From the sequence record SRR31156797_3163: a DNA stretch of 39,100 nt, one strand, 5' to 3'. The notes under the pieces were generated by a model. The model was not told where the DNA came from, searched no databases, and saw nothing but the letters and a program-made list of their open reading frames with translations. Both the position numbers and the translations under genes were made by a program. Positions 2,369-17,645 of this stretch are shown here, piece after piece. Within the stretch, counting starts at the first letter, position 1. Every line of letters begins with the position of its first letter.

Positions 2369-4323
2369 TATTCCACCTCGACTTTTTTGGTTTTACCATT
2401 TTGATCAGTAATTCGCTTCACGTCATGACCAGTCGCACCGAGATACCAAACAATGTCATCGACTTTTTGCCGTTGTTCGGATGAAGAAGCCCGTTGCAAA
2501 GCAATTGCGGCGAGACGTCCGTATACATTAGGCTTGCTGGCTGAACCTCCGGCCACGGTCCGCGTGCTACCGGCCAACCATTTGACAAATTCAGGATCAG
2601 TCATAAGTCGGGCCACTCTACGCTGCACAGTAAGACGCGCTCCTTGGAGAGCCACACCTACCCCGGCTCCCTTGATCGCACCGCCAATGCTCATCCCACC
2701 AGCTCCACCAAGAAAAGCGCCAGTTCCAACCATTCCGATAATAGGCTTCCAAAGTTCGTCCCAAGCAGTATTTATCGCTGTTTGAGAACTGTTTGCGTAA
2801 TTATCCAGACTCTTGAAGAATTCAGCGTTTTTAAGAAGCTTGTCCATTTCCTTCTTGGCAGGACCAAAAAGGATATCAGACGCTCCAGGGGCTTCCTGTT
2901 GCATCCGGGCATAACGAGTCAAAAAAGTTGCGAAACTGAACCCTTCGCCACTTGCCCCTGTTCGACCAGGTGTGGGTCTACCAAGATCACGATATGCCCG
3001 AGAACGAAGAGCCGAAGTTGTTTCTTCTGAAAGCATATTCATTGCTCTCATGAGCTTGTCCGCTGCGGGCTTGCCCCCTCGCATCAACTGCCTATAAATA
3101 GCTTCAGGCTCTGGATTTTTGAGAATGGCTGCAACCTCATCAAGTAACCCGACATCCCCATCTTTCTTATTTCCCATCCCCCGCTTGAACCAATCCTTGG
3201 CATTTCCTCTGGCCTTTTTCGCAGCGTCGCCACCAAGCATTTCAGCGGCATCTCCGAGGTCACGATCTGCAGCCCGTTCAAAAGCCATACGAAGCCGGTC
3301 AACATCATCAGCTTCATGAGCAAGCTTCTTGTATGCCCCCCGCGCAGCTTTCTTGATAGAATCAAGAGCCGTTTTGGAAATATTCCCATTTCCATCTACC
3401 GATTCCAGAACAAGTTCAGCCTGTTTTGCCATCTTGGACATGGCATCTGCTGCATAAGGGCTTTGCTTTGCGGTTTGGAGTATTTCCTGTGCCTTGGCAA
3501 TAACGTTAACAGCAGGAATGGCCGCGTCATCTGGTACAAAATCACCAACTTTTTTCCAGAGCTCATCGTTAACACCTTTCCATTCATTGCGCATGGCAAG
3601 AGCATCCCGACGCATCAATTCACCGATTTCGTAAGGAGTCAGATTAGGACCAAGCTCATCAGCAATCTCTTGATTGACCTGTTGACCACGTGCAAAATTA
3701 TGGGCGTCTACTTCACCATATATCGAACCAGTGGCAGGCTTCCCACGCATGGACTGAGAGAAAGCCCGGGCCTCTGGATTATCGAGCATACCGACTTCCG
3801 GTTTGAACCCCTGTGCGTGAAGGCTGGTAACGTCTCGCGCCGTTTCGGCTCCAACGGGACCAACTTTTCGTTTAATCGCCGATTTGATAGGCGAAAACAC
3901 GGTTTTCCCGGCCTTAAATGCAGTTTCAGCGATTTTGCCACCAGCCACATCAACAGCCATATCCGTAGCCGCCCGCCCTGCGGCCTCGCCCATGCTCGGC
4001 ATAGTCTCGGGGTAGATCAAACCGCGCACGTAATCATATGCCTGACCGCCCATGGCATCGCCCATGGCCATGGCCGCTGGAACCGTTACGAGTTCTTCTG
4101 GCGTGGCCACCTGTGGGCCAAGTTGCCCACCAATTCCAGCAACCAACCCCCCAAGGGCAGAGCCGGTCACCTGCGCAACCCCACGTCCCCAATCTGTTTT
4201 TTCTTCAGGTTCAGGCTGAATATTTTTCTGAACATAAACCATCGAAGCATGTTGCATATCCTCTTTGCTCATGCTGTCTGGGAACTGAACCACTTTGCCG
4301 TCCGGCATCTGCACTTTCGGCAT
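2368..4323 (-). CDS. Large DNA ejection/transfer (internal virion) protein
   Basis: 651 aa, N-terminus MPKVQMPDGKVVQFPDSMS typical of podophage DNA-transfer proteins; Gly/Ala-rich hydrophobic segments; TAATG coupling. Confidence 0.7.
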   Translation of the reverse strand: MPKVQMPDGKVVQFPDSMSKEDMQHASMVYVQKNIQPEPEEKTDWGRGVAQVTGSALGGLVAGIGGQLGPQVATPEELVTVPAAMAMGDAMGGQAYDYVRGLIYPETMPSMGEAAGRAATDMAVDVAGGKIAETAFKAGKTVFSPIKSAIKRKVGPVGAETARDVTSLHAQGFKPEVGMLDNPEARAFSQSMRGKPATGSIYGEVDAHNFARGQQVNQEIADELGPNLTPYEIGELMRRDALAMRNEWKGVNDELWKKVGDFVPDDAAIPAVNVIAKAQEILQTAKQSPYAADAMSKMAKQAELVLESVDGNGNISKTALDSIKKAARGAYKKLAHEADDVDRLRMAFERAADRDLGDAAEMLGGDAAKKARGNAKDWFKRGMGNKKDGDVGLLDEVAAILKNPEPEAIYRQLMRGGKPAADKLMRAMNMLSEETTSALRSRAYRDLGRPTPGRTGASGEGFSFATFLTRYARMQQEAPGASDILFGPAKKEMDKLLKNAEFFKSLDNYANSSQTAINTAWDELWKPIIGMVGTGAFLGGAGGMSIGGAIKGAGVGVALQGARLTVQRRVARLMTDPEFVKWLAGSTRTVAGGSASKPNVYGRLAAIALQRASSSEQRQKVDDIVWYLGATGHDVKRITDQNGKTKKVEVE

Positions 4324-5342
4324 TATTCAAACTCCCCGGTGTTGGGGTTAAAAATAAGATCAACTCCCTGTGGCTTCTGCGTGGGAAAAGCTGCGACTGG
4401 TTGCTGTTCTGTGGGCTGAATTCCAAGATTCTGCTCATGTTGTGCCTTCTTACGCGCAACATATTCACGGACCTGTCCAATCGAAGCCATAATCTGCGCC
4501 TTACGATTATTCCAGGTAAGCGGATTGACCGGTATTTCCGTCGGATCAATCAGCATCTGATTCATAAGATCCAAGTCAGGACCGTTCAAAACACCAAGAT
4601 TCAACAACTCTTTTAACTGCATTTGAACAGCGCGATGAGCAGAACTCATGTCCGCCACAGTCTCGGCGTTAGTGCCCATCTGAGGTTCCCACCCATGCTG
4701 ATCAACAAGAGACTCAAAAGCATCGAGGGAATCGGAAACACCCCGCACTGCGTCTAAGGCGCTGCGGTTGTCTCTGATTTCAGTTTTAGAAAGAGGCACG
4801 CCGCCCGGCCCAACTATGTTTCCCCCAGCTCCAATTTGGACAGTGGGCGCGGCCCTAACACGGCTCCATCCTGTTGGAATTTGTGCGCCTTCTGACACAT
4901 AATGCTGACTGCCATGTTCATCCTCAAAGACATCGTAGCTAGGCTTAACCGGTTTCGGGAACTGTGAATCAACCATTTTCTTGGCACCATAAAGATTCAA
5001 CGCGTCCTGCTGTTGCTGCTCCGGCGTCCGATAACGCATTTGCTCCGGCGACACATAACCGAATGGATTAAACCCATGCTTCGATTCCATTTCCTGCGGA
5101 GTCCTACCCATGTCCCCCTGAAGCGCACCGGAGTTAAGCATGCCCAAGGCCTGCCTCCTTCGATTCACTGTCTCCTGATTCTGTGTCGCCATATCGATTT
5201 GAAGCTGTTGGAGTTTCATAGACATGTCGTCGCGTATTTTTTGCTGCTCAACCAACGCATCGCGCCGCTGATCTTGATGATATTGATCAACACCTTTGGC
5301 AGTGCCCTGCATGAACCCGGCTAATCCGTCCATCATTCCCAT
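4323..5342 (-). CDS. DNA ejection/internal virion protein
   Basis: 339 aa, Gln-rich helical protein, strong RBS GGAGG, middle gene of the ejection trio. Confidence 0.6.
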   Translation of the reverse strand: MGMMDGLAGFMQGTAKGVDQYHQDQRRDALVEQQKIRDDMSMKLQQLQIDMATQNQETVNRRRQALGMLNSGALQGDMGRTPQEMESKHGFNPFGYVSPEQMRYRTPEQQQQDALNLYGAKKMVDSQFPKPVKPSYDVFEDEHGSQHYVSEGAQIPTGWSRVRAAPTVQIGAGGNIVGPGGVPLSKTEIRDNRSALDAVRGVSDSLDAFESLVDQHGWEPQMGTNAETVADMSSAHRAVQMQLKELLNLGVLNGPDLDLMNQMLIDPTEIPVNPLTWNNRKAQIMASIGQVREYVARKKAQHEQNLGIQPTEQQPVAAFPTQKPQGVDLIFNPNTGEFE

Positions 5343-5351
5343 GACAACCTC

Positions 5352-6197
5352 CTAAAAAATCGAATCCCAAACGTTGTCCATCAGACCGCCGACGGCAGGG
5401 GAAGCAAGCTGGCCGACTGCCCCCCATATCGCATTGCTGTTGGCAGCATCTCGGTTTGCATTAGCCATCGCCTGCTGCCCGGCAAGCTGCTGTGTGGCCA
5501 CGGCACCCGAGTTGCCCTGCCCGGCAAGCTGCATGGAACGCTGGAAATTCAACTCATCGATCTGATTCTGCCAATTCTGCTGATTCAAACCGTACTGAAA
5601 ATCCTGCTCAAGCTTCTGGTTGTTAAACTGGCTCTGCTGATTCTGCTGATTCAAATCGTGATTAAGCTTGTTCTGATTGTAAGAATTCTGATCCTGAGCG
5701 TTCGCCAATCCCGCAGCCCAAGAGGCCTTGTTCTGGCCGATCTGCTGCCCCTGATCCTGCAACTGAAGGCCGTAGGACTGAGCTTGCGCATTGGAAAGCG
5801 CATTTTGCGTGGCCTGATTCTGTGCCGACTGCGCACCACTCATCATGCCGTTTCCGGTCGATCCGTAAAGCCCACGCGCCGAATATTGGTCATTAATTCC
5901 GGCCATAGCCTTGTCATGCTGCGAATGGATAGGAGCCTGAAGGGATTGAGTCAGCTTGGCATAATCTCCACCCTCAAGACCGGCAACGGTTTTCATCTGA
6001 CCGGGCGCATTATAATCGTAATAATTTGCCTGTGCCGGGCCTTGCATCTGGCCGGTATAATTGGCTGGGTATTGCTGCTGTTTGTCCAGCCCCGCCTGCA
6101 TGATGTTCTTGCCGGTTCCAAGACCGGTCTTTTGGGCTTTGGTCGGGTCCATTTCACCGACTTCTGCGCCGGTAGTGTACGGATTTTGAAGTGTCAT
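5352..6197 (-). CDS. DNA ejection/pilot protein
   Basis: 281 aa, Gln/Asn/Ala-rich with the YSARGLYGS motif and a C-terminal amphipathic Gly-rich helix, as in podophage pilot proteins. Confidence 0.65.
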   Translation of the reverse strand: MTLQNPYTTGAEVGEMDPTKAQKTGLGTGKNIMQAGLDKQQQYPANYTGQMQGPAQANYYDYNAPGQMKTVAGLEGGDYAKLTQSLQAPIHSQHDKAMAGINDQYSARGLYGSTGNGMMSGAQSAQNQATQNALSNAQAQSYGLQLQDQGQQIGQNKASWAAGLANAQDQNSYNQNKLNHDLNQQNQQSQFNNQKLEQDFQYGLNQQNWQNQIDELNFQRSMQLAGQGNSGAVATQQLAGQQAMANANRDAANSNAIWGAVGQLASPAVGGLMDNVWDSIF

Positions 6198-6223
6198 ATT
6201 TTACTCCTTCTTTTCCCTGTCGG

Positions 6224-6246
6224 TAGAAATCACCTATTGATTTCTA
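6224..6246. repeat. Perfect 9-bp inverted repeat (operator or hairpin) upstream of the lipoprotein moron
   Basis: tagaaatca-cctat-tgatttcta. Confidence 0.5.
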
Positions 6247-6297
6247 GTTGAAATATTTCATCGTTCCGTGATAACCGCCTCGATATAGGGGGTTCAC

Positions 6298-6522
6298 ATG
6301 AAACGTTTTCTCATCATCATACTTGCTCTGGCTCTGCTCGGCGGTTGCGCTCAAAAATCCATGAAGCAGCAGGCCGAAGAGTCACGAGAACGGGCTACCC
6401 AAAACACCAAAGAAAACCCCCCGGAAGAACCGAGCAAAAACAAGCCTATCCAAAAGGAAGACGACTCGATTGGTACTGGCAAAGAAGTAGACAACATTAT
6501 TGACGCCATCATCTTCTACTAA
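6298..6522 (+). CDS. Small lipoprotein (moron, opposite strand to late operon)
   Basis: Signal peptide MKRFLIIILALALLGGC with lipobox LGGC; RBS GGGGG; fits the gap between two minus-strand genes. Confidence 0.8.
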   Translation: MKRFLIIILALALLGGCAQKSMKQQAEESRERATQNTKENPPEEPSKNKPIQKEDDSIGTGKEVDNIIDAIIFY

Positions 6523-7631
6523 ACCGCTTGCGGCCCATAGTATGGCGTACTCCACATCCTCTGCCACTGGGCAGCTAAGTCCGGCTCTCCATCGTTTGTC
6601 TGTTCTGCCCTTGAAGCCATTGTCACCGGCTTTGAGCTCATCATTCCTCCATTACCAAAGCCCTCATAAGATGGAGCGGGACCGTGCGGATTGGTCACAC
6701 CTGTATAGTTGAGGTCGCGTGCTTGGTTGGCCATCGCTGCAATTTGAGAGACTTGAGACATTCCCGGTACTCCCACCAAACCGAGTGCCCTTGTTGCTTG
6801 CTTCACCACACTTGGGGTAGGCGGTGAAATTTTCCCTGAAGCCCACCCAATCCCCTTACTTGCATACTTCGCAGCAGGCACACTCCCCGTCTGTTCGTAC
6901 ACTCCCTTCGCCACAGCAGGGGCCATCATGCCCAACCCAAAACCCAAGGGACCGTATCCCCATTCCGGCGTCTTTTCTGCCACCTCACTCATGGTATCCA
7001 CGTCATCTGTCTTCGCTCCAAAGAAATCTCCCAATGCCCCCAGAAAACCACCGCTACGATGTGTGGACCTCACTTTACCCATGTCATAACCACGGTTTTC
7101 GAGCTCCCCCACTAGTCCTTTATTGAGGGCATCAAGGTCGCGCTTCTTTTCATCCCAAGACATGCCAGGTTTGTTGAAAATCTCATCAAACTTCTGATCA
7201 ATTGCGCCTTGCCTATTGTACGCATCTGCTTTGATATTCTTTTGTCGATTGGCATAATGCTGCCCATAAAATGAACTTCGCGGATCACTGATCCCGTAAG
7301 ACCCCATCCCGCCATTTTTGCTCCAATTGTCACGCTGGTTCAATCCGTACCCGGCAGCCGTGGTCATCATGCCACCCATACGAGATGGCGCACCGACCTG
7401 AACCAAAGACCCGGTGCGAGGATCTACACCCCAAGCAGTGTTGGAACCAAGATTCTGCCCGCCCCAATTCCCATCGGCCTCTACCCCTTTGGGACGGCCA
7501 ATATTGTTATTGGTATTAAAATCGTAACCACCATAGCCGCCACCGCCAGTATCGTGGCCACCAGAGTTCTTCCCTGCACCACCACTAGGATCATCTCCAC
7601 CATAACCACCGCCGCCACCTAAACTCGGCAT
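6519..7631 (-). CDS. Gly-rich hypothetical virion/ejection-associated protein
   Basis: 370-aa ORF between the nozzle and pilot genes, RBS GGAGG; low-complexity Gly-rich N-terminus. Confidence 0.6.
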   Translation of the reverse strand: MPSLGGGGGYGGDDPSGGAGKNSGGHDTGGGGYGGYDFNTNNNIGRPKGVEADGNWGGQNLGSNTAWGVDPRTGSLVQVGAPSRMGGMMTTAAGYGLNQRDNWSKNGGMGSYGISDPRSSFYGQHYANRQKNIKADAYNRQGAIDQKFDEIFNKPGMSWDEKKRDLDALNKGLVGELENRGYDMGKVRSTHRSGGFLGALGDFFGAKTDDVDTMSEVAEKTPEWGYGPLGFGLGMMAPAVAKGVYEQTGSVPAAKYASKGIGWASGKISPPTPSVVKQATRALGLVGVPGMSQVSQIAAMANQARDLNYTGVTNPHGPAPSYEGFGNGGMMSSKPVTMASRAEQTNDGEPDLAAQWQRMWSTPYYGPQAV

Positions 7632-7633
7632 AT

Positions 7634-9151
7634 CTACCTCCCGACGACCGCTATTTCAGCGGCAATTTCTGAAATGCTGAGACGACCGCCATTCATTGTC
7701 CTGACTTGCAGCATGATACCGCTACTCCTGAATTTCGATCGACAGGCCTTGCGCTCAACTTTGGTGCCACCAAGCGAAAACTTTGCGTCATGGAGAGAAT
7801 AAATAGCGTCATGCAAAGAATCCGCTCCAGCCCCGCGCACAAAATCCTCTTGAGCAAGAATTCGTTTGGTCTGCTCATCACCGCCATACACTTCAATCTG
7901 GTATGACCCCGACCATTCATAATTCGACTGCAAAATAGTCTTGTAGAGCAAAATATCACCGGGACCGGTCAACATTTTGAATCGAACAGACGACACTACA
8001 TCCTTAGTGACCCCCGGCTCTATCTCATCTGTTGCTTCCTTTTGAAGCTGATACAGATAGCCAGATTCTCCAGCTAAATAGAGCCCGCTGCCAAACTCGG
8101 CCACGGTATAAATATCCGAAGAGAACTCCAGTTCAGTGAACCCGCCAAGGGGAGAAAAAGTATAAATTTGGCTCCAGTGCCCTGTTTTTGTCAGAATGAC
8201 CCACACAGCGGCCATGCTCGGCAATTTGACCATCCGAGGTTCATCCGCAAGACGGGCGTACTGACCAAGAAACGAATTAACCTTCCCGCCGACAATCGGA
8301 TCATTTGAAATATCTCCATATGCCTGCGTCGGAGCCAGCGCCTCGAACCCCTCGGAGTCGATGTAATAAACCTGATCACCAAAACCGGTAATACAATGCG
8401 GGTTAATAGCGGCGTTGTTCTCGCTCAAATCATCCGCTTGCCACGAAGAAGCCGGAAGCCCCATGTCGAGCCGCCAAAGCTTCTTTTTGACGACAGCACC
8501 GTCGCTGCGAGCCACCTTGGACACAATGAGAGAACTGGCCACCATGGCAAAGCCATTGACGGTCATACCATCACCAAAACCGGCACGAATGGAAACCGCA
8601 CCTCCCGAAGTTGTGTTCCAATCGGTTTCATTTTCCGAGCCACACATCATGATCGCATCAAGATCGTTGATACTGTTGCAAATGAGCCTTCCGCGTGCCG
8701 TAAAGACAATGGTCGCCGTTGGACTCTCGGCAATGCGTGAAACAGTCGTGCCATCCCACGAAAGCAGTCCTTCACCCCCATCTGCCACAATCAACTTACC
8801 GTTGAATGTAACCATGGTGGGAGTACCGGCATTATTCAAAGGAGTGATTTCAACCCATTGATCCGTACTGAAATCATACCGATTCAATTTGCCACCAGAC
8901 ACAGCCACCAAATACCCCTCTGAATCCTTACGAATAAACGGATAAAGTAACTGAATTGGATCAGCCAATTTCACACTTGAAACCGTGGCCATTCCCGGTC
9001 GCGTGACAATCTTCCCTGTGTTGGTGTCATAAATGACGTTGTATGCCTGCGCGAGTTCGTTCTCGGCGATCTGCGAAGCGTGCAACGAAGCATTCCACCC
9101 CCCGGTGGGTTGCATCCTGATAGGTATGATAGGTTTTCCGCCTATAAGCAT
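7634..9151 (-). CDS. Tail nozzle/packaged-DNA stabilisation protein (P22 gp10/tubular protein B-like)
   Basis: 505 aa, beta-rich; N-terminal GGWNAS...NVIYD...TRPG pattern; position after the adaptor. Confidence 0.75.
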   Translation of the reverse strand: MLIGGKPIIPIRMQPTGGWNASLHASQIAENELAQAYNVIYDTNTGKIVTRPGMATVSSVKLADPIQLLYPFIRKDSEGYLVAVSGGKLNRYDFSTDQWVEITPLNNAGTPTMVTFNGKLIVADGGEGLLSWDGTTVSRIAESPTATIVFTARGRLICNSINDLDAIMMCGSENETDWNTTSGGAVSIRAGFGDGMTVNGFAMVASSLIVSKVARSDGAVVKKKLWRLDMGLPASSWQADDLSENNAAINPHCITGFGDQVYYIDSEGFEALAPTQAYGDISNDPIVGGKVNSFLGQYARLADEPRMVKLPSMAAVWVILTKTGHWSQIYTFSPLGGFTELEFSSDIYTVAEFGSGLYLAGESGYLYQLQKEATDEIEPGVTKDVVSSVRFKMLTGPGDILLYKTILQSNYEWSGSYQIEVYGGDEQTKRILAQEDFVRGAGADSLHDAIYSLHDAKFSLGGTKVERKACRSKFRSSGIMLQVRTMNGGRLSISEIAAEIAVVGR

Positions 9152-9162
9152 ATTCGCTCCTG

Positions 9163-9191
9163 TTGACTCGCCAATTCTGAAGGCGTATATT
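9163..9191 (+). promoter_or_regulatory. Sigma70-type promoter antisense to the late operon
   Basis: TTGACT (9163-9168), 17-bp spacer, TATATT (9186-9191). Confidence 0.75.
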
Positions 9192-9200
9192 TATATCTCT

Positions 9201-9298
9201 AATGGCCGGATGATGCTGTCTGTAAGTGGACGGCTAGCCACTCCTGGAGGTGCGTAGCACGCCAGGCACCGGGGCGCGGCGACCTCAATCCGGCTATT
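9201..9298 (+). ncRNA. Putative structured small RNA (multi-branch), candidate RNA antitoxin
   Basis: 11-bp closing stem 9201-9211/9288-9298; hairpins 9215-9234 and 9243-9266; G-U pairs favour the + strand; directly downstream of a promoter; no credible ORF. Confidence 0.6.
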
Positions 9299-9953
9299 CT
9301 TTATGTTTCACGATTTTGTTCGGAAATTTCTCCTCTGCCTTGCGCAACTTTCCTTCCATCTGTCCTTCATTAAACTCGTATGCCGAGCGCACCCAATTCT
9401 TATTGCCACGCCCTCTGAAGTCGGCCACGGTTGCGCCATTATCCTTGGGCGCACGGTCTTTCATGAAAAGCAAAAACCTGTCATCCGTTGCCGGAATCGT
9501 ATAATTCGGGTCTGACATCACCTCTTCAACAAGATTTTGAACGTCTTCCGGCGATGCGTACTTACCACCTCGTTTCTCAAGCAATTTGTTGTAGTTGGCA
9601 TACAGCGGGTGCTCGTTCAGTCCGAGAGTCTTTCGCAATTCATCCGGGACAGGAACAAGCGTTTGTGGCTTGAAACGCTTTCCTCCTGCCGATCCAAGAC
9701 TCCCAACTGGCGTCATCATCCCGCCAACCGGTGCCGCCAACATCCCAAAATCAAGCATGGCTTCATTCACGGCCAAAGGATCAAAACCATGGCCATGTCT
9801 CGCGCTATCAAACTGCTCAGCAAGATTATAAAGGCTCGTCGCCGGTCCTCTGACAAAATCACGATAAAAACTCGGTCCCGTCTTATCGACCTTGGACATA
9901 ATCCGTGCGTCCAATCCTTGAACGCCGGAAACAATGTCGTCCATCATACCCAT
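9294..9953 (-). CDS. Putative virion-associated protein with C-terminal BECR/PBECR-like RNase domain
   Basis: C-terminal ~110 aa has the helix-'VMSDPNY'-beta-meander-'WVRSAY' pattern recalled from PBECR domains of phage polyvalent proteins; N-terminus MGMMD..QG resembles the 4323-5342 protein. Fold call is by eye. Confidence 0.55.
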   Translation of the reverse strand: MGMMDDIVSGVQGLDARIMSKVDKTGPSFYRDFVRGPATSLYNLAEQFDSARHGHGFDPLAVNEAMLDFGMLAAPVGGMMTPVGSLGSAGGKRFKPQTLVPVPDELRKTLGLNEHPLYANYNKLLEKRGGKYASPEDVQNLVEEVMSDPNYTIPATDDRFLLFMKDRAPKDNGATVADFRGRGNKNWVRSAYEFNEGQMEGKLRKAEEKFPNKIVKHKE

Positions 9954-9956
9954 GGG

Positions 9957-10586
9957 TTAACCCTTTCCTACCGTGTTCCAGCCACGGCTTTTCAATGTAG
10001 TCGGAGAAAGGTCCGCAAACATCCCAAGAACATCTTTTTCAAGCTCATCCATGAGGGCGCTGTCGATAGAAGTATCGTAGCGGTCCACCTTCCTGGCGCG
10101 CAGAGAAACGTATTCACAAATAATGTAATCCAGCTTTCCACCCCACGGTGTCTGACTCGACAAAGTCAGGACGTCAGGATCGACATGCACATAATATCGA
10201 AGAGACAGGGGGACATCGTTTGAAGACGCCCCTTTAATTTCGAGATTGTTTTCGTCGATGAGATATACGGACACTTCTCCAGCCGAAACAATGGTGTCCC
10301 ACTTGTCTTCATCGTAGCCATGAAGCGGTGTATTGGTATCCATACGCGTCAAACTGATGGGCGTAAGAAAGTCAGCGGGGAGCGGAACAGAGGTACTACC
10401 AGCCAACAGAATTGGCTCTGCCTTCCCACGCATGAACTTGAGACGGTTAAGCTGGCCGATGGTGTTAGCCCTGCGCACGGCCTGTTTAAAAAAAGTGAGA
10501 AGTTGCGAATCATCCCAACGGCTACTCATCTCGTCGTTCAGTTCATTGCGGACAAACTCTGTGATTCTGGAAAGAATCGTCGCCAT
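9957..10586 (-). CDS. Head-tail adaptor (tail tubular protein A-like)
   Basis: 209 aa, VRNELND...RWDDSQLL..F and LPADFL motifs typical of phage adaptor proteins. Confidence 0.75.
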   Translation of the reverse strand: MATILSRITEFVRNELNDEMSSRWDDSQLLTFFKQAVRRANTIGQLNRLKFMRGKAEPILLAGSTSVPLPADFLTPISLTRMDTNTPLHGYDEDKWDTIVSAGEVSVYLIDENNLEIKGASSNDVPLSLRYYVHVDPDVLTLSSQTPWGGKLDYIICEYVSLRARKVDRYDTSIDSALMDELEKDVLGMFADLSPTTLKSRGWNTVGKG

Positions 10587-10595
10587 TTCGCACTC

Positions 10596-10952
10596 CTACT
10601 TAATAATAATCATCGGACCTTCGCCATTGGTATTGGCGTTGGCACCGTTCATTTTACTGACCGTCATAAACTCCGGGTGGTCCTGAAGCCATTTCTTCAA
10701 GTCCTTGCCGGATAAACAGCCGCCGGACTCCTGCGCTTCGCGCTGCATGTCCAGAAACTCAATCAAAGGCATCTCACCAATCACACGATGGTCACGCTGC
10801 TTGGAGAAACCGTTGTCGCCAAAGTCGCGCTCATATTGAGCTGCGCTGCGCACCACAGCTGCATCGTATGTTGTAACGCGTGTCACCTTCATTTTATCGC
10901 TGTTGCCGATCACGGCATTCTCGACACTGATAAGATTTTCAAAATCAGGCAT
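10596..10952 (-). CDS. Conserved-type phage protein downstream of capsid gene
   Basis: Start reassigned to MPDFEN (10952), preceded by GGAG; 118 aa; motif IGEMP...KKWLQDHPEF. Confidence 0.7.
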   Translation of the reverse strand: MPDFENLISVENAVIGNSDKMKVTRVTTYDAAVVRSAAQYERDFGDNGFSKQRDHRVIGEMPLIEFLDMQREAQESGGCLSGKDLKKWLQDHPEFMTVSKMNGANANTNGEGPMIIIK

Positions 10953-10969
10953 CTTGTCTCCAAGGATAT

Positions 10970-10993
10970 GGGGGAAGGCAGAAGCCTCCCCCC
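10970..10993 (-). terminator. GC-rich stem-loop after capsid gene (weak terminator/mRNA stabiliser)
   Basis: gggggaaggc-agaa-gcctcccccc; lacks a U-tract. Confidence 0.5.
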
Positions 10994-10999
10994 TATTGA

Positions 11000-11965
11000 T
11001 TACGCAGCCTTCTTGGTGCGGGTCAGATTGGTGATGGAACCAACGCACTTCTTGGAGCGTACTTTGAGCATTTTGGACATGGTCAAACGCCACTTCTCGG
11101 CATCGCCGGTCTTAGCCAGCTTTTCACGCTTCAAAGGCCGGAACGTCTCAACATTCAGACGGGCCTTTTCATAAATGAGAAGCCTGTCGTAGAAGACATC
11201 CGGGTCGGGAGTGGTGTCGACATCCGGCGCAATAAACCGTTCCGGCAAAATGGTAACAATGCCGAAGTCGGTTTCCAGAATACGCACGGTCATCTTCAAC
11301 GCCTTTTCAGACGCATTAGAGTTAATGGTCAGGCGACCGCCCTGAGTGAAATCGGAAATCTTCCGTTTCTGAGCCGGAGGAGCAAGTACGCAATCAGGGT
11401 CTGCACCCTGTTCCCACATGGACTGAAGGACATCGTTCAAAATATCCTCTGTAATGTGGTTTGTATCGGCCATGGTCCCGCCGAAGTCGTAGTTGTTTCC
11501 ATTTCCAACAAACTGGAACGCGCCATCCATCTTGGCCGGAAGGGTCGCAGTACCGGCCTGCTTGCTCTGGTTGATGCAGTTGTGTTCCAGATCACGCGCC
11601 AGTTCTTTGGTCTTAAGGCCGGACTGGTATTTGATCTCAGACTTGCGACCGTGCTTGTCGGTCTTTTCCAGGTCTTCGGAAATCTTGAAAGACTTCTCCA
11701 AACGCTGGACCCGGTTGTCGAGCAATTCAGGCGGCACCAGAGCCGCAGCGGTAGAATCCGCGCCTTCAACGTGCGCATTCTCACCAGCATCACCGAGGGT
11801 GTCTTCCAACCATTCAGGATGCAAAGTTTTAGCCTTGCCGCTCTGACCAATGGAACTCAAAAACGGAGTATCGGTCGGTGCAACGTTGGTGATCAGCTTG
11901 TCCACTTCTTCAGGAATGGACTTGTCGTAGTTGGTGGTAACGGTTTTGGTCGTAACATCAGCCAT
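11000..11965 (-). CDS. Major capsid protein (DUF5309/SU10-like)
   Basis: ITNVAPTDTPFLSSIG, HPEWLEDTL, EGAD, KELARDLEH, ETDFG and LAKTGDAEK motifs. Confidence 0.9.
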   Translation of the reverse strand: MADVTTKTVTTNYDKSIPEEVDKLITNVAPTDTPFLSSIGQSGKAKTLHPEWLEDTLGDAGENAHVEGADSTAAALVPPELLDNRVQRLEKSFKISEDLEKTDKHGRKSEIKYQSGLKTKELARDLEHNCINQSKQAGTATLPAKMDGAFQFVGNGNNYDFGGTMADTNHITEDILNDVLQSMWEQGADPDCVLAPPAQKRKISDFTQGGRLTINSNASEKALKMTVRILETDFGIVTILPERFIAPDVDTTPDPDVFYDRLLIYEKARLNVETFRPLKREKLAKTGDAEKWRLTMSKMLKVRSKKCVGSITNLTRTKKAA

Positions 11966-11977
11966 GATAATTTCTCC

Positions 11978-12994
11978 TTAATCGGCATCTCCGAACAGCG
12001 CGCCAATATCACGCAGAGAACCATGCCCGGACCGAACGCGTTTCCGCGCTTCCTTGAGCTTCCGGGTGGACTCGCCGCCGCCCTGTTGCTCGGCCCCTGC
12101 TCCTTCAAGGATAGGGGCTTTTTCGGTCACGGTGCGGCCCTTGGGCAGTGTTTCGATGTGTTCCGGCTGCCCTGGCTGCTTTGCGGCTTCAACAATGCTA
12201 GGCCTCAAGGCGTTGTATCGTTCAAGGTAGTATTCAGGATCGCTATCAAGACGGGCGTAGAGACGCGCAGCCTCATCCTTGCCCCATTTGTTCGCAACAT
12301 CCTGAACCTCGTCGGCAATAGCCTTGTGAACGGCGCCATAGTGATCATCCTGCTGAATGACCGACTTCGCACTGTCTATCCGCTGCTTCTGCTGAAACAC
12401 CCGCTGCTGATCCTGCATCTGCTGAATCTGCGGCTGCACCTTCTGCATGGCTGCCTGCTCGGCGTCCCATTTAATCCGTTCAAATGGATCTTCCGGCGGC
12501 TGTTCGGTTGTCGTTTGTGTGTTCTGCTGTTGGTTGAAGCTCAACACATGCGCCCGAAATTCCGGGTCGCCTTGCATCATCTCGGCAAGCTGTGCAGCTC
12601 CTGCGGCTTTCTCTGTCGCACGGGAAAGTTCCTGCGACTTGCGAGAGACAAACGCTTCGCGGCCCTTTTCGAACTGAAGGGCAACACCCTGCACTTCAGG
12701 CGGAAGCTCGGAGAAAGCCTTCTTCTCCTCTTCGCCCCAATATGCAGGAAGTACCCGCTCGAGTTGGGCCTGATCAGGCTTTGGCTGCTCTTCACCGGCC
12801 TGCGGTTCTGCTATGGGCTGCGCATCAGACTTGGACGCGTCTGCGCCTTCCTCTGCGTCCCCTTCATCACCATCCGGGTCTTCAAAAGCCTCGCCAATGT
12901 CCATAGGGTCGGATAAAGGCTGATCCTCAAGGGATTCCTCGCTTCCAACGGCTTCGTCAGCCTCGACCGCTTCGACGGTCCACTGATCTTTCAT
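11978..12994 (-). CDS. Capsid scaffolding protein
   Basis: Acidic N-terminus, helical Gln-rich body, YW..EEK..F..LPPEVQ motif; immediately upstream of the capsid gene. Confidence 0.8.
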   Translation of the reverse strand: MKDQWTVEAVEADEAVGSEESLEDQPLSDPMDIGEAFEDPDGDEGDAEEGADASKSDAQPIAEPQAGEEQPKPDQAQLERVLPAYWGEEEKKAFSELPPEVQGVALQFEKGREAFVSRKSQELSRATEKAAGAAQLAEMMQGDPEFRAHVLSFNQQQNTQTTTEQPPEDPFERIKWDAEQAAMQKVQPQIQQMQDQQRVFQQKQRIDSAKSVIQQDDHYGAVHKAIADEVQDVANKWGKDEAARLYARLDSDPEYYLERYNALRPSIVEAAKQPGQPEHIETLPKGRTVTEKAPILEGAGAEQQGGGESTRKLKEARKRVRSGHGSLRDIGALFGDAD

Positions 12995-13026
12995 GGATCT
13001 TTTCTCCTGTTATTTGTTGAGACGGA

Positions 13027-13329
13027 CTAAGAAACCCGTCGTACCTTCTTCACTTCTCCGGCAAGCTCTGCCCTCGCCTTCTCGCCAAGAGCAATGTCGT
13101 TCTCAATGCGCTTTTCAAGGGTCTCGATAAAAAGCATCTGAGCCCGACACGCGCTAAATTTGTCCGTCTCCATCGGGGACAGGCTGAGGATGTTCCCCTC
13201 CAGTGCCTCCCGCGCCTCCTTCAGGCATGTGCTGAAGTACCGGTTGCCCTTGAGTTTGCGACCCTGCTCCCCCTGCCTGAATTGCTGCTCCAGAGCCTGC
13301 TCCCGGTCCTTCTTGGATTCCTTGGGCAT
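13027..13329 (-). CDS. Small phage protein between portal and scaffold
   Basis: Start reassigned to MPKESK (13329) with RBS GGAGG; 100 aa; overlaps the portal 3' end by 176 nt. Confidence 0.7.
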   Translation of the reverse strand: MPKESKKDREQALEQQFRQGEQGRKLKGNRYFSTCLKEAREALEGNILSLSPMETDKFSACRAQMLFIETLEKRIENDIALGEKARAELAGEVKKVRRVS

Positions 13330-15169
13330 TGGGTGCTCCTCCCATGAGTTGCTGCAATCGCTGCTGCAACTGCTGAATGGTTTGCTGCATTTGTTGCAGC
13401 GTGCTGTATTCACCTTCGGCGAACTGAAGGTCTTCGAAACTGACCCCCATGAGCTTGCCGATCTTCCGTTCTGTCTTGATGAGATGTTCCGGCCCCGCCA
13501 CTCCAGATGGGATGAGGGCAGTCGTCAGCTTCTGAAAATGCTGTTCAAGCACCTGAGCCTGCTGCATGCGATCCTGCGGCCCGACACCGACCTCGATTTC
13601 AATGTCGTGTCGACCTTGAAGATCTTCAGGAGTTATCTCGGTGGATTCTTTACCCAACAGCGTAAAAGCTTCCTTGGGTGGCCATGTCTGGTTAATCCAC
13701 ATCATGTCCTTGAGAACCTTCTTGAGCGGACTACCAAGCAACTTGGCGTAAAACTTCTGCCGCTGTTGTCCTGCGTTCTGAAGAGCCATGGTGCCAGTCG
13801 CCGTCTTCCCCATGGAGTCGGCGGTCAACCCCTGATTCAGGCTGTTGACACCAGACGTGCGCTCATAGTCCATACGCCTCATCTCAATGGCATCGATAAG
13901 CGTTTGCCCGGGCTGATCAGGCTTCACAAAATCATAGGACCCGGCTTTCAAGGAGGGATGCAGCAATACGTCTGATACCGTTCGACTAGCCCATTCAGAC
14001 GCAAACTTGACGTCATTCGTGACCATTGTCCCGTATGCAGCACCAGCACTGGAGTCAGTGAAAATACGTTGAAGATTGGTCATTTCCTTCTGATCATCTT
14101 CAAGATGTATGGGGAGAGGCTTTCCTTCGAATCGGAAAGGAACGTTGAACAGGTTTCCAGCCCGGAACGGTGGCCGTCCGTAGGGATTTTCGACAATGTT
14201 CAAAATAATCTCACCGGTCTTCCAAATGATAACCGGCTCAAGAAGGCCGTCCTTGTCGACGTCCATACGGGTGTATATTTCGTCAACAAAAACCTCCATG
14301 CCCGGTCCAAGCATGTCCTTTTCATGATCGAACTCGTTCATCGCCCCGGAAACGTCCAGTTCGTCTCTGGAATAAGTGTCCTCCCACTCCTCACGCAGTT
14401 CAGTCACATCCAAAGAATCATACCCTTCCTCTTTGGCGGCCTTTGCTGAACCTTTACGGAACTGACCACGCATTTCCCTGCGCTGGATATCGTCGATAGT
14501 CATTCGTTTGCGATGAATAACAACCCGTGCGCTATCAATGGACTTTGATCCGGGAGAGATAAGGAACTCCCACGGCGGCAAAGCTTCCACTTTCGGGCCT
14601 CTGAACGTTTCTTCCTTCTTCACAGCCTTGACGTTTTCGTATGAAACAACCGTGTCCTCACCGGAAATATCTTCAATACGATCATACTTTGTCGCCTCGT
14701 AACCTTCCTCCACAAGCATGGCGAATTGCTGTTCAGAAAGCCGGTCGAACTCTTCGGAAACCATGTCGTATTGTTCGTCAAAAAAGGTCTTGATAACACC
14801 GTTATGATACCGGAGAGCCACCTCCATGTACGCCTGTAAAATTTCAACGCCGTCCTGCTGACTAAAAAGCTGATTACGCAAAAGCTTCTTGTTTTTTTCA
14901 GCCTTGTCCGAATCTTCCATCAATACGGTAAAGAAATCGGGATGCGTAAAGATTGAATCCAAACCGGGAAGCAACCAGTTGATGGTATCGAACACCACGG
15001 CGGCAACCTGCTGACTGAACCCGTCGACCTCGTTGCCAAGCTTCTCCCGGTCGTAGAGGGCTGAACAGGCTTTCCGCTCTCCAGACAATTGTCGTGCCCA
15101 ATCTTCGGCCTGATCAATATCAGGCTGAATCAGGTCAATGATCTCTTCGTTTTCGATCTTGATAGCCAT
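13154..15169 (-). CDS. Portal protein (P22-like)
   Basis: 671 aa after terL; PPWEFLISP, DVDKDGLLE, ERTSGVNSLNQG and KTATG motifs; Gln-rich barrel helix. Confidence 0.9.
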   Translation of the reverse strand: MAIKIENEEIIDLIQPDIDQAEDWARQLSGERKACSALYDREKLGNEVDGFSQQVAAVVFDTINWLLPGLDSIFTHPDFFTVLMEDSDKAEKNKKLLRNQLFSQQDGVEILQAYMEVALRYHNGVIKTFFDEQYDMVSEEFDRLSEQQFAMLVEEGYEATKYDRIEDISGEDTVVSYENVKAVKKEETFRGPKVEALPPWEFLISPGSKSIDSARVVIHRKRMTIDDIQRREMRGQFRKGSAKAAKEEGYDSLDVTELREEWEDTYSRDELDVSGAMNEFDHEKDMLGPGMEVFVDEIYTRMDVDKDGLLEPVIIWKTGEIILNIVENPYGRPPFRAGNLFNVPFRFEGKPLPIHLEDDQKEMTNLQRIFTDSSAGAAYGTMVTNDVKFASEWASRTVSDVLLHPSLKAGSYDFVKPDQPGQTLIDAIEMRRMDYERTSGVNSLNQGLTADSMGKTATGTMALQNAGQQRQKFYAKLLGSPLKKVLKDMMWINQTWPPKEAFTLLGKESTEITPEDLQGRHDIEIEVGVGPQDRMQQAQVLEQHFQKLTTALIPSGVAGPEHLIKTERKIGKLMGVSFEDLQFAEGEYSTLQQMQQTIQQLQQRLQQLMGGAPNAQGIQEGPGAGSGAAIQAGGAGSQTQGQPVLQHMPEGGAGGTGGEHPQPVPDGDGQI

Positions 15170-16734: not shown

Positions 16735-16740
16735 GCCGAT

Positions 16741-17124
16741 TTACTCCAATTCCTCCAGCGCTTGCTCATGCGTAATTGCAAGGCTACCGCTGTGTTCCAA
16801 ATTCATCTTGTCGCCGTACTTCTTGGGCCGCAGCTTGCCAGCAACCCACTTCCGCGCGTCAATGCGCACCTTGGCCTTCTTCGGATTCTCTTCGGTGTCG
16901 GCAATCTCCACCATTTCATCAGCAAACGAATCAGCCTGAGCCTTCCGCGCGCAGGCGTATTGGTCGGGGAAGGATGCTGCTGTCTTCACGGTTCCACTTG
17001 CCCAAGCAAGGACGGTTGCCTTATTCGGCATTTTCTCATCATCACAAATGAACCGCAGCGACTCACCGTCAGCGAGTCGATCACATATCTTTTTGGCGAT
17101 TGCCTTTGTGAAGCGATTACCCAT
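16741..17124 (-). CDS. terS: Terminase small subunit (Sf6/P22-like)
   Basis: ICDRLADGESLRFIC...MP and RIDARKWVAGKLRPKKYGDK motifs. Confidence 0.92.
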   Translation of the reverse strand: MGNRFTKAIAKKICDRLADGESLRFICDDEKMPNKATVLAWASGTVKTAASFPDQYACARKAQADSFADEMVEIADTEENPKKAKVRIDARKWVAGKLRPKKYGDKMNLEHSGSLAITHEQALEELE

Positions 17125-17140
17125 GTCTTTCTCCCAACAA

Positions 17141-17366
17141 TGAAAACCCCAAAGGATACAATAATTCCTGAGCTATGATGCGTTGTCCCTATGCCCTGCG
17201 ATTTATCGAGCCTGCGAAGTCCATCCGACCGTTTACCCTTGGGTTCGGGCTGGCCGTCGTCGCCTCTCCCGATTTTTAAAACCGCGCTCGTTTATCCGTT
17301 ACGCCGGGGCTTACTGCTCCTGCCCGGCAGATCGGCAGCCGGGGTTCATGCTGCCGCAGGGTTTCA
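17141..17366 (-). ncRNA. Possible structured RNA between lysis cassette and terS
   Basis: ~250-nt gap lacking a minus-strand ORF; several nested inverted repeats (see findings). Strand assumed from the operon. Confidence 0.4.
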
Positions 17367-17378
17367 GGTTGAAATTCG

Positions 17379-17645
17379 TTATTCGTGTCTGCCAAGGGCC
17401 GTTTTCAGATCGCCCTTGATTTCCTGAATGTTCTCCGACAGGGAATCCATTTTCGTTTCAAGCCTGACGACCTTCGTCGTGAGATTGTTGTTTTCTTTGA
17501 CCTGACATTCCAGAAACTCCACACGAGTGTTCAGCGAAACGACAAAGGCAATCACGATTGCAAATGATCCCAAAATGGAAATGATGTTGGCTACGTTCAC
17601 GTTCTTGTCGAGGGTAATTCCCACTCTTTTTTCGTCTGCCATCAT
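17379..17645 (-). CDS. Small membrane protein with coiled coil (lysis-cassette associated)
   Basis: One TM segment followed by a heptad pattern; ATGA overlap with the o-spanin. Confidence 0.7.
   Translation of the reverse strand: MMADEKRVGITLDKNVNVANIISILGSFAIVIAFVVSLNTRVEFLECQVKENNNLTTKVVRLETKMDSLSENIQEIKGDLKTALGRHE

Follow-up and report, generated by a model that had tools for sequence, protein, structure and literature searches.

The window, i.e., the whole stretch of DNA analysed here (39,100 nt, sequence record SRR31156797_3163), comes from a temperate SU10-like podophage. A CI-like repressor (E 2.1e-25) and an integrase (E 5.2e-43) are encoded on the + strand of the same phage, which bears out the lysogeny assumed in a preliminary description of this DNA. 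The late operon runs along the - strand, and the gene of interest lies directly after the head-tail adaptor gene and four genes after the portal gene. The features of the locus are as follows.

9957..10586, - strand: head-tail adaptor gene, 209 aa (Pfam SU10_adaptor PF24175, E 3.5e-10); left border of the insertion
9152..9953, - strand: inserted cassette, 802 nt, composed of the cargo gene and a 142-nt spacer (from locus comparison)
9294-9953, - strand: cargo gene, 219 aa; the ORF starts 4 nt past the adaptor-gene stop
9669..9953, - strand: N-terminal domain of the cargo protein, aa 1-95, with three long helices followed by a Gly-rich linker (AF2)
9330..9665, - strand: C-terminal PBECR/MuF-C-like domain, aa 97-208, with Lys127, Arg128, Arg189 and Ser190
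9198..9312, + strand: predicted small non-coding RNA, about 105-115 nt (from the fold; start and end are putative)
9201-9211/9288-9298, + strand: P1, the 11-bp closing stem (minimum-free-energy fold)
9213-9219: shared block ATGCTGT, spaced as in locus L005
9215-9221/9228-9234, + strand: P2 (same fold)
9243-9266, + strand: P3 (same fold)
9270-9278: shared block CGGGGCGCG, spaced as in L005
9271-9286, + strand: P4 (same fold)
9299-9312, + strand: U-rich tail
9163..9191, + strand: sigma-70-type promoter TTGACT-17-TATATT (promoter scan, 10/12 matches), antisense to the late operon
9156..9167, strand not assigned: 12-nt block, the same in the window as in L005 (top-scoring local alignment between their spacers)
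7634..9151, - strand: nozzle-like tail gene that borders the insertion on the right; 505 aa, match to phrog_3287 'virion structural protein' with E 5.3e-11

The ORF at 9294-9953 confirms the 219-aa gene that had been placed between adaptor and nozzle genes, with the name 'nozzle' given to the 7634-9151 gene from its position only. This nozzle-like gene is 70-72% identical to the adaptor-following gene of three other loci (L001, L002 and L005), and the profile of its family matches designed beta-propeller proteins. The tail operon also contains another + strand unit, a 74-aa lipoprotein-like ORF at 6298-6522.

Adaptor and nozzle-like genes occur together in 11 loci, namely the window and 10 of the 20 loci examined. 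The cassette is absent from six of these (L001, L002, L035, L037, L038 and L039), in which adaptor and nozzle-like genes abut, and in L001 and L002 the adaptor stop lies directly against the nozzle-like gene. Inserts occupy the junction in the other five (the window, L005, L025, L026 and L027); that of L005, a prophage of Pseudodesulfovibrio karagichevae 9FUS, is a homologous insertion at the same junction (8001-8774). Cargo gene and spacer are one precise insertion at the adaptor-nozzle junction. A second DNA run yielded short contigs of nozzle and adaptor genes only, none of which spans the cassette.

The cargo protein (P0001) has two domains. Its N-terminal domain is modelled by AF2 with helices at residues 2-22, 28-52 and 59-80 and low pLDDT at residues 76-90, and it is common to P0002, P0013, P0037 and P0003 as well. 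The first of these is 52% identical to the window protein over aa 1-103 and ends in an ART-PolyVal domain. C-termini borne on this N-domain are PBECR-like (P0001, P0003), ART-PolyVal (P0002, L025, L027) or of other kinds (P0013, P0037); the ART-PolyVal matches, with E 1.4e-6 and 2.2e-6, are both just below Pfam's cutoff. A constant N-terminal module (aa 1-~100) is thereby combined with interchangeable C-termini, and this module, as a putative carrier, probably places the cargo protein in the virion. Its best score in a language-model atlas is 0.87, which is a lead only. No close relative of the 219-aa cargo protein turned up among phage GenBank records at DNA or protein level, in a word-indexed protein search, or in viral or genome contigs queried with the single protein, and an N-domain family alignment gave no match in viral and metagenome contigs. 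Alignment A2 matched 3 of 401 genomes of an order sample and 1 of 42 genomes of the genus, with no new PBECR cassette among them.

The preliminary description likened the C-terminal part to BECR-type RNase domains and looked to fold comparison for confirmation, which came from BFVD but not from solved structures. The domain model (pLDDT 93.3, pTM 0.87) has a helix at 41-53 followed by strands at 57-60, 67-71, 78-84 and 92-100, i.e., the PBECR core of an N-terminal helix and a four- or five-stranded sheet. Four BFVD entries match at E <= 0.001 (E 7e-6 to 9.5e-4, TM 0.59-0.65): a minor capsid protein, which is the best (E 7e-6, TM 0.65), a MuF-C-domain protein of Escherichia phage phi191 (E 1.5e-4), a nuclease (E 4.1e-4) and a second MuF-C protein (E 9.5e-4). 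A 'Colicin D' entry follows at E 0.047 with probability 0.99. In the language-model atlas, the domain scores 0.89-0.91 with PBECR2/PBECR3/MuF_C clusters. HMMER searches with the cargo protein gave 52 matches at E <= 1e-3, of which 48 cover the C-terminal part only, within proteins of up to 4037 aa, where the domain occurs beside RadC or GGDEF domains. Five viral loci with the domain were found; in the three others that were inspected it forms part of a larger protein, and neither a spacer nor a partner is present. Pfam recognises no family in P0001 even at E 10, which includes the PBECR and MuF_C models; in alignment A1 (26 sequences, window protein included) PBECR3 is matched by two sequences (weakly, best E 0.0015) and PBECR2 by one (E 0.19). 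When the whole-protein and domain models were compared with the PDB by Foldseek, neither had a match at E <= 0.001, the domain model giving only weak RelE/HigB-type ones, and profile searches of solved-structure sequences returned nothing usable. The modelled fold assigns the C-terminal domain to the PBECR/MuF-C type, with a predicted BECR-fold, RNase-like character; the supposed kinship is upheld by the fold but not by Pfam, by solved structures or by the catalytic His.

[quoted passage not shown] In column counts over 27 sequences, Lys127 is K in all 27 and Ser190 is S in 25. Position 128 is His in 24 and Tyr in two, and Arg in the window protein only; a second His, present in 19 of the 27, is absent from the window protein. 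The window protein thus retains the Ser of the PBECR active site and has an Arg128 that is unique within its own family. With Arg in place of the near-invariant His at the catalytic position, it is doubtful whether this copy is an active RNase or toxic, and the window protein, judged by its residues, may be catalytically dead and in no need of an antidote.

On the opposite strand, the near-consensus promoter TTGACT-17-TATATT noticed earlier is recovered by the scan at 9163-9191 (+). Promoter-like sites in the window are at chance level (nine in 5000-17500 vs 8.2 +/- 3.0 expected), and the scan found no sense-strand terminator or promoter in the window spacer. Three other cassettes have a promoter with the same placement beside the nozzle start: TTGACC-17-TATTCT in L005, TTGAAA-16-TATTAT with TG in L027 and TTGAAA-16-TATGAT with TG in L025. 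An antisense promoter is therefore called at the equivalent place in 4/4 such cassettes (the window, L005, L025 and L027), and in L005 the scan gives three sites vs 0.5 expected. Within the 12-nt block that the window has in common with L005 lie the ribosome-binding site of the nozzle gene (9157-9161, - strand) and the initial five bases of the -35 element (+ strand); the local-alignment score of this block is reached by 6-7 of 1000 shuffles.

The minimum-free-energy fold of 9195-9305 (+) reproduces exactly the 11-bp closing stem and the hairpins at 9215-9234 and 9243-9266 that had been described by inspection, and contains a fourth hairpin at 9271-9286. The 3' arm of P1 includes 9294-9296, in agreement with the claimed overlap between the predicted RNA and the cargo stop codon. 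This fold has z -1.42 (14/200 shuffles as good) and that of 9198-9300 has z -1.91 (7/200); window promoter and fold, each alone, are no better than chance. Over the same 103 nt the + strand folds at -43.4 kcal/mol vs -37.4 for the - strand, a gain of 6 kcal/mol that is due to G-U pairs. In the window, a U-rich tail is all that comes after the closing stem. Neither spacer of the two cassettes contains an Rfam family (at gathering thresholds or E <= 10), a tRNA or tandem repeats; Tandem Repeats Finder returned 0 rows for 8900-10200, and no repeat family was found in the spacer beyond one 69% chance match. The tRNA-shaped decoy suggested previously gains no support from ARAGORN, which detects no tRNA.

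PBECR cassettes number two in everything searched, the window and L005, and because there are only two, covariation is read from one hand-made pairwise alignment fitted to the structure. Both contain three blocks, GCTCCTGTTGAC, ATGCTGT and CGGGGCGCG, in identical order and separated by 45/46 and 50/51 nt in the two cassettes. The 5' arm of the closing stem ends 1 nt ahead of ATGCTGT in both cassettes, and four of seven arm positions differ between them with full compensation. Among 19 comparable pairs, 10 are the same, seven are changed on both sides, one is changed on one side and one is broken, so that structure is conserved between these two sequences. Complements to the stem arms arise in shuffled downstream sequence in 1/5000 cases for the window 11-mer and in 151/5000 for the L005 7-mer. 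The antisense strand of L005 folds at -47.1 kcal/mol (z -3.98, 0/200 shuffles as good) into a closing stem and two hairpins, followed by an 8+3-bp GC hairpin and UUUACUUUU; this hairpin and U-tract read as an intrinsic terminator on the antisense strand only. Topology differs, with the GC-rich block lying within the closing stem in the window vs in an external terminator in L005. The L005 sense strand also folds well (z -3.09). Spacer identity (56%, from a lenient global alignment) is in effect no higher than gene DNA identity (53%), and the two cargo proteins are 32-37% identical.

The preliminary description had looked to homologues for a conserved promoter and a covarying RNA: the promoter is kept in L005 and the helices compensate, but this is a single homologous cassette in a hand alignment. 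It is only by comparison with L005, L025 and L027 that promoter and RNA rise above chance. When both RNAs were aligned automatically with MAFFT/RNAalifold, the resulting structures did not agree, and that alignment was discarded. A small-peptide reading was also rejected, since ORFs from the shared ATG are of 15 aa vs 63 aa and unrelated, and the two spacers have no conserved ORF. The three-block pattern had three matches in viral and three in metagenome contigs; all fall in GC-rich coding sequence lacking the cassette proteins and were judged to be due to chance.

The sister cassettes with ART cargo, one of them in a D. gilichinskyi prophage, suggest what the spacer may be for. In both L025 and L027, a convergent ORF of 113/123 aa with a ribosome-binding site follows a TTGAAA-16-TGnTAT(G/T)AT promoter, so that an ORF slot lies behind the same promoter position that in PBECR cassettes is followed by no conserved ORF. 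Homology searches with the convergent small protein found two related proteins, with no name or family, and complex prediction for the L027 ART domain with its convergent 123-aa protein scored 0.14 (mark 0.34). Promoter and convergent gene together make the slot look like one for a lysogen-expressed partner, which would be filled by RNA in PBECR cassettes. An antitoxin or antidote role for the predicted RNA is proposed by analogy with that convergent protein gene, for an RNA represented by two sequences.

The reading that we favour, at a probability of about 0.3, is that the locus is an effector cassette with a prophage-expressed RNA partner that neutralises the PBECR protein. A mobile 802-nt cassette would have inserted exactly between the adaptor and nozzle-like genes. 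Its late-operon gene would make a two-domain cargo, a virion-carrier N-module joined to an RNase-like C-domain, and the opposite-strand sigma-70 promoter would fire away from the nozzle gene to give a compact RNA of ~100 nt that reaches the cargo stop codon. The partner would be made from the prophage independently of late transcription, and the lysogen would be protected from the effector. In PBECR cassettes the partner would be the RNA itself, which might occupy the PBECR domain's RNA-binding cleft in the manner of a pseudo-substrate or decoy; such logic would be type III-like, although the layout is not. That the ~100-nt prophage RNA is an immunity factor for a virion-delivered BECR-fold RNase, with protection against the effector of its own and kin phages, is a tentative proposal. 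The earlier interpretation is partly supported: by the kind of domain as judged by fold, the temperate phage, the promoter and the RNA in L005, but not by the Pfam and PDB searches, the residue at the His position or the tRNA search.

A doubtful but serious alternative is that the RNA acts in cis, by pairing with the cargo-nozzle intercistronic mRNA in the lysogen and causing 3' decay and transcriptional interference in a type I-like manner. By construction, the RNA is fully complementary to ~100 nt just past the cargo stop, its promoter is directed against the late operon, and convergent 3'-overlap is the layout of txpA/RatA and bsrG/SR4. However, the overlap stops short of the cargo ribosome-binding site and coding body, the L005 terminator would end the RNA at the stop codon, and the cargo is not a small membrane peptide. 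Moreover, the three blocks are kept at fixed spacing despite 32-37% protein identity, which points to recognition by a trans-acting factor, since a purely cis-antisense pair would not need them, and the sister-cassette slot holds a protein gene whose product is incapable of pairing.

It is also conceivable, though unlikely, that there is no functional RNA and that the spacer is junction DNA that supplies the nozzle ribosome-binding site, perhaps as the remnant of a lost immunity gene. The AT-rich part of the spacer near the start would then resemble a promoter by chance, and the GC-rich part beyond the stop would fold because of its composition. Chance-level promoter counts and fold z-scores in the window fit this explanation, as do the presence of the ribosome-binding site in the strongest shared block, spacer identity that does not exceed gene identity, and a window protein possibly inactivated by the His to Arg change. 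It is opposed by the promoter at the same position in 4/4 cassettes, by the strong L005 fold with its strand-specific terminator and by closing stems that compensate at a homologous anchor point at the shuffling frequencies given above. A tblastn search for a small-ORF remnant in PBECR spacers likewise found none (best E 0.039 in a tiny database, coding antisense).

Less probable still is an independent lysogenic-conversion 'moron' sRNA with host or phage targets in trans that merely travels with the effector. That the predicted RNA has a promoter, and in L005 also a terminator, to itself between two late genes would suit such a unit, and the same phage has the other + strand unit in its tail operon at 6298-6522. 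Against this, the RNA is found only with PBECR cargo (2/2 cassettes) inside one precisely bounded insertion, ART cargo has a different partner in 2/2 independent cassettes, and no free-standing copy turned up when viral and metagenome collections were scanned for the three-block pattern. A sense-strand mRNA element of the late operon, which would govern processing or stability, or act as a partial terminator, between cargo and nozzle, is very improbable: its position between two late cistrons and a closing stem that also forms on the sense strand in both cassettes (L005 z -3.09; window -37.4 kcal/mol) are outweighed by G-U pairs that become A-C mismatches, with a loss in the window of 6 kcal/mol and one hairpin, by an L005 U-tract that follows the hairpin only on the antisense strand, by the lack of a sense terminator or promoter in the spacer scan, and by the conserved antisense promoter that it leaves unexplained.

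Comparison with known systems suggests a view of the locus, with its proposed RNA partner, as a kind of phage polymorphic toxin-immunity cassette. Sections of Jamet et al. 2017 (PMC5576092) describe MuF polymorphic toxins, which are alike in their temperate phages, virion-gene block, constant N-module with variable C-effector and small partner element immediately downstream; a small ORF lies downstream in 89.4% of 191 MuF toxin genes. The MuF toxin gene lies just after the portal (PMC5576092), whereas the cargo gene here lies between adaptor and nozzle. In addition, there is no MuF domain here (no Pfam or PHROG match), and the partner, which is convergent, has a sigma-70 promoter to itself; in PBECR cassettes its slot contains a predicted structured RNA and no ORF. 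PBECR/MuF-C domains of polyvalent proteins (PMC5512222) share the helix and four-stranded sheet, the Lys/Ser residues and the virion-gene context, and fold matches are to MuF-C and polyvalent 'nuclease' proteins. In contrast, the protein here is small, with two domains, and is encoded in a cassette of defined borders that also contains a dedicated unit on the opposite strand, no Pfam model is matched and the window copy has Arg for His. The sections of Iyer 2017 (PMC5512222) drawn on here make no mention of an opposite-strand partner for PBECR domains.

The proposed logic is all that is shared with type III toxin-antitoxin systems. In those systems (ToxIN, CptIN, TenpIN) an RNase-type protein is checked by an adjacent structured RNA, with a terminator between the units; their RNA consists of tandem repeats upstream on the same strand and their toxin is ToxN-like, whereas here the RNA has no repeats and is downstream and convergent, and the toxin candidate has a BECR-type fold. 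Type I pairs of the 3'-overlap class, such as txpA/RatA and bsrG/SR4 on Bacillus prophage-like elements, have convergent 3'-overlapping antisense RNAs. The cassette resembles them in geometry, with a convergent, predicted ~100-nt RNA complementary to the 3' region of the toxin mRNA, in being prophage-borne and in having its own constitutive-type promoter. Type I toxins, however, are small hydrophobic membrane peptides with their own promoter, unlike a 219-aa soluble two-domain effector of a late operon, and sequence blocks here are conserved between diverged cassettes. Phage morons are promoter-gene-terminator units between late genes (e.g., lambda bor/lom, HK97); the predicted unit is similarly autonomous between two late genes of a temperate phage and absent from six related loci, but it is non-coding, antisense to the operon and part of the same insertion as an effector gene that is expressed late.

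Effectors that are known or predicted to enter the cell with phage virions include T4 Alt, the MuF toxins and the polyvalent proteins, and to our knowledge the handling by lysogens of their own phage's effectors is poorly known. We know of only protein antitoxins and immunity proteins for BECR-fold RNases, and a non-exhaustive literature search found no title on an RNA inhibitor of such an enzyme. Small size, defined borders and a natural homologue that retains the His (P0003) make the cassette directly testable in laboratory strains. These cassettes represent a compact family with swappable effector domains and a partner slot predicted to be transcribed from the other strand; their site, between the adaptor and nozzle genes of temperate podophages of the SU10 type, is a new one. 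Should the RNA partner prove real, it would be an RNA inhibitor for a BECR-fold RNase, and protein and RNA antidotes would be interchangeable within one cassette design. If the immunity role is true as well, polymorphic effector cassettes would have a new class of immunity, based on RNA and swappable with protein immunity in one slot.

In the window, the structural genes of an SU10-like podophage form an operon on the minus strand between 5 and 17 kb. The phage is temperate, with a CI-like repressor and an integrase encoded on the plus strand.

Structural and lysogeny genes of the window (coordinates, strand, gene)
16741-17124, minus strand: small terminase (Sf6_terminase, E 3.1e-38)
15169-16734, minus strand: large terminase (phrog_2)
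13154-15169, minus strand: portal (SU10_portal, E 3.8e-92)
11000-11965, minus strand: major capsid protein (SU10_MCP, E 4e-71)
9957-10586, minus strand: adaptor (SU10_adaptor, E 3.5e-10)
9294-9953, minus strand: 219-aa gene (protein P0001), between the adaptor and the 505-aa tail gene
7634-9151, minus strand: 505-aa tail gene (phrog_3287), 'nozzle-like' by position only
23631-24290, plus strand: CI-like repressor
37957-39045, plus strand: integrase

The family profile of the 505-aa tail gene matched designed beta-propellers. The window is one entire contig of 39,100 nt from run X1, and a 27-nt direct repeat (96% identical; 129-155 and 39009-39035) near its two ends may represent attachment-site or terminal repeats. 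Its word depth is 112.4 compared with 33.7 for another contig of the run, a difference that does no more than hint at additional phage copies. Three tandem 10-nt units resembling GGGAATCGCA (19133-19169) and a 24-nt inverted repeat with a 2-nt gap near the repressor gene (25646-25695) are candidate iterons or operators. The late operon contains a second opposite-strand unit, a 74-aa ORF (6298-6522, plus strand) in the 321-nt gap between minus-strand tail genes 6519-7631 and 5352-6197. It has a ribosome-binding site and a lipoprotein signal (weak LPAM_1 match, E 0.005), and inspection of the sequence shows a lipobox-like LLGGC; the unit may be a moron for lysogenic conversion or superinfection exclusion.

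The adaptor-nozzle junction is a cargo hot spot, because inserts occur at five of 11 adaptor-nozzle loci when the window is counted. An adaptor search of 401 genomes from the family of genome G001 gave matches in 17, and the junction survey covered 20 loci, including 17 re-retrieved places. A nozzle-like gene lies downstream of the adaptor in 10 of these 20; eight have no downstream nozzle match, L040 has no adaptor match and L041 ends at a contig edge. The two genes abut in six of the 10 nozzle-bearing loci (L001, L002, L035, L037, L038, L039), including the IMG/VR loci L001 and L002, in which the nozzle-like protein is 70-71% identical to that of the window and the adaptor stop adjoins the nozzle start directly. 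Inserts are present in the other four (L005, L025, L026, L027). Adaptor-like genes with 34-36% identity in other Desulfovibrionaceae (L028-L034, L036) have no nozzle-like gene after them, which reflects either a different element organization or a prophage edge; the next ORF in L029 is 1200 aa long with a SU10_portal domain (Pfam), and in L032 it is a lactate permease (Pfam).

Inserts at the same junction in related loci
L005: adaptor 7372-7998; cargo gene 8001-8624; 150-nt spacer; nozzle 8775-10295
L025 (locus coordinates): convergent small ORF 3637-3975, plus strand
L027 (locus coordinates): convergent small ORF 3622-3993, minus strand
L026 (locus coordinates): third kind of insert, 2619-6396, with ORFs of 170, 531 and 533 aa, no Pfam family in any of the three and no opposite-strand unit

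The cargo protein P0001 is modular. It has no family match in Pfam or PHROG, and a 15-billion-protein collection lacks its exact sequence; an exhaustive HMMER search gave 52 matches at E <= 1e-3. Only P0003, the cargo protein of L005 and a hypothetical protein of Pseudodesulfovibrio karagichevae, matched both parts. Three matched the N-terminal part only (P0002, 52% over residues 1-103; P0013; P0037), and 48 matched only residues ~51-217, in proteins whose length ranges from 128 to 4037 aa, with RadC and GGDEF domains alongside in one of them (P0020); this spread corresponds to the polyvalent-protein pattern. The N-domain, being joined to differing C-termini, is thus a fixed module that is combined with exchangeable effector domains at the C-terminus. 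P0002 carries ART-PolyVal at its C-terminus, scoring just below the cutoff (E 1.4e-6, 29.6 bits; cutoff 31.2). P0013 and P0037 join the proposed carrier N-domain to other C-termini, with a weak LPD23 match (E 0.001, below cutoff) and a DGxHR-like motif in P0013 and an R...STS-like pattern in P0037, both motifs read by eye only.

In an AF2 model, the N-domain forms three long helices followed by a Gly-rich linker that is flexible. The C-domain modelled alone (pLDDT 93.3) is built of a helix, a sheet of four strands and a helix at the C-terminus. The preliminary description had likened it to PBECR RNase domains. This likeness is borne out by Foldseek matches among predicted viral structures, namely a minor capsid protein (E 7e-6, TM 0.65), a MuF-C-domain protein of phage phi191 (E 1.5e-4), a nuclease (4.1e-4) and a second MuF-C protein (9.5e-4), with polyvalent proteins and a 'Colicin D' entry (E 0.047, probability 0.99) lower in the list; it is not borne out by Pfam for P0001 or by solved structures, where nothing reached E <= 0.001 and only weak RelE/HigB/Cami1/CdiA-type matches occurred. 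Two of 26 family members matched PBECR3 weakly in Pfam (best E 0.0015), and a language-model atlas places the domain nearest the PBECR2/3 and MuF_C clusters (0.89-0.91). We conclude that it is a PBECR/MuF-C-type domain. Catalytic competence of the window copy is doubtful because a conserved His is replaced by Arg and a second His by Leu: across the 27 sequences of alignment A5, Lys is invariant (27/27), Ser occurs in 25/27, the first His column has 24 H, two Y and one R (the window protein), and the second has His in 19/27. Part of Iyer et al. (2017; PMC5512222) characterizes PBECR domains by a His in the N-terminal helix together with a Ser/Thr towards the C-terminus, describes one PBECR family with Arg at the His position and regards the MuF-C domain of phage Mu itself as inactive.

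The opposite-strand promoter proposed for the window (TTGACT-17-TATATT, 9163-9191, plus strand) was recovered by scanning with 10/12 matches, and folding 9195-9305 (plus strand) gave the proposed closing stem of 11 bp with its two hairpins and added a fourth hairpin. These features are real, yet taken alone they lie within chance because promoter-like sites in 5000-17500 are as frequent as expected (nine seen; 8.2 +/- 3.0 expected) and the fold is weak (z-score -1.42, equalled in 14/200 shuffles). For 9198-9300, the plus strand gives -43.4 kcal/mol (z -1.91, 7/200 shuffles) and the minus strand -37.4 kcal/mol (z -1.38, 19/200). The cassette region contains neither a tRNA nor an Rfam family nor a tandem repeat.

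A promoter and a predicted structured RNA also occur in L005, the only homologous cassette found. Because the L005 adaptor end is almost identical to that of insert-free L001, its insertion starts precisely at the cargo ATG and stops immediately before the nozzle ATG. Its opposite-strand promoter is TTGACC-17-TATTCT (three sites in 3 kb; 0.5 expected). The antisense strand of the spacer has a 7-bp closing stem around two hairpins, then an 8+3-bp GC hairpin and UUUACUUUU, which read as an intrinsic terminator on that strand only; it folds at -47.1 kcal/mol (z -3.98, 0/200 shuffles), and the sense strand at z -3.09. Three sequence blocks are common to both spacers: GCTCCTGTTGAC, a 12-mer spanning the nozzle ribosome-binding site and the first five bases of the -35 element, which is the best local alignment (score reached in 6-7/1000 shuffles); ATGCTGT, 45 or 46 nt further on; and CGGGGCGCG, 50 or 51 nt past that, within the closing stem in the window versus the external terminator in L005. 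Across the whole spacer, identity is 56%, not above the 53% of the gene DNA. The 5' arm of the closing stem stops one base short of ATGCTGT in either RNA; the arms differ at 4/7 positions, with compensating changes in the distant 3' arms. In a hand-fitted alignment of just these two sequences, 10 of 19 comparable pairs are unchanged, one has a one-sided change, seven are two-sided and one is broken; between these two the compact fold is kept through compensating changes. Arm complements arose in shuffled downstream sequence in 1/5000 (window 11-mer), 219/5000 (window 7-mer) and 151/5000 (L005 7-mer) cases.

L025 and L027 (the latter from D. gilichinskyi, by the name on P0054; IMG/VR locus L044 encodes the same proteins) are sister cassettes with a 339-342-aa cargo gene that joins the window-type N-domain to ART-PolyVal (E 2.2e-6). 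The following ~400 nt hold a convergent ORF of 113 or 123 aa with a ribosome-binding site and a TTGAAA-16-TGnTAT(G/T)AT promoter right beside the nozzle start. Its product matches no known family, has one other relative only in protein searches and is a candidate ART immunity protein of two Desulfovibrionaceae prophages. The antisense promoter is thus conserved in position, at a distance of 11-17 nt from the start codon of the nozzle gene in all four cassettes with the N-domain. With ART cargo it would drive a small protein, and with PBECR cargo a predicted structured RNA that has no ORF; the window and L005 spacers retain no remnant of the small ORF.

By analogy with MuF-fused and polyvalent effectors, as treated in parts of PMC5512222 and PMC5576092, the cargo would be made late and carried in the virion, while the opposite-strand unit may be expressed from the prophage as an antidote. 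We tentatively favour action of the RNA on the cargo protein (probability about 0.3), because the equivalent ART slot holds a protein, which is incapable of base pairing, and because the blocks persist at fixed spacing between cassettes whose proteins are 32-37% identical. Against an antidote stand the missing His of the window copy and the occurrence of PBECR domains elsewhere inside large proteins with no partner (three contexts inspected of five loci). The main rival, a type I-like cis-antisense role, is unlikely: a pure antisense pair has no need of blocks kept at fixed spacing, and the ART slot again argues against it. A non-functional junction, which the chance-level window signals favour and the L005 fold opposes, seems rather unlikely, and an sRNA moron unrelated to the cargo is improbable. 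A sense-strand mRNA element is very improbable, even with the sense-strand fold of L005.

The closest design is that of the MuF polymorphic toxins of temperate phages (PMC5576092), which combine an invariant virion module with a toxin that varies and a small partner encoded downstream. The cassette differs from these in its N-terminal module and genomic site, and in a partner that is convergent, promoter-driven and, with PBECR cargo, a putative RNA. It departs from the layout that defines type III systems, since repeats are lacking and the RNA lies on the wrong side and strand, and its cargo is not the small peptide that characterizes type I systems. The arrangement would be categorically new only if neutralization of the protein by the RNA is real.
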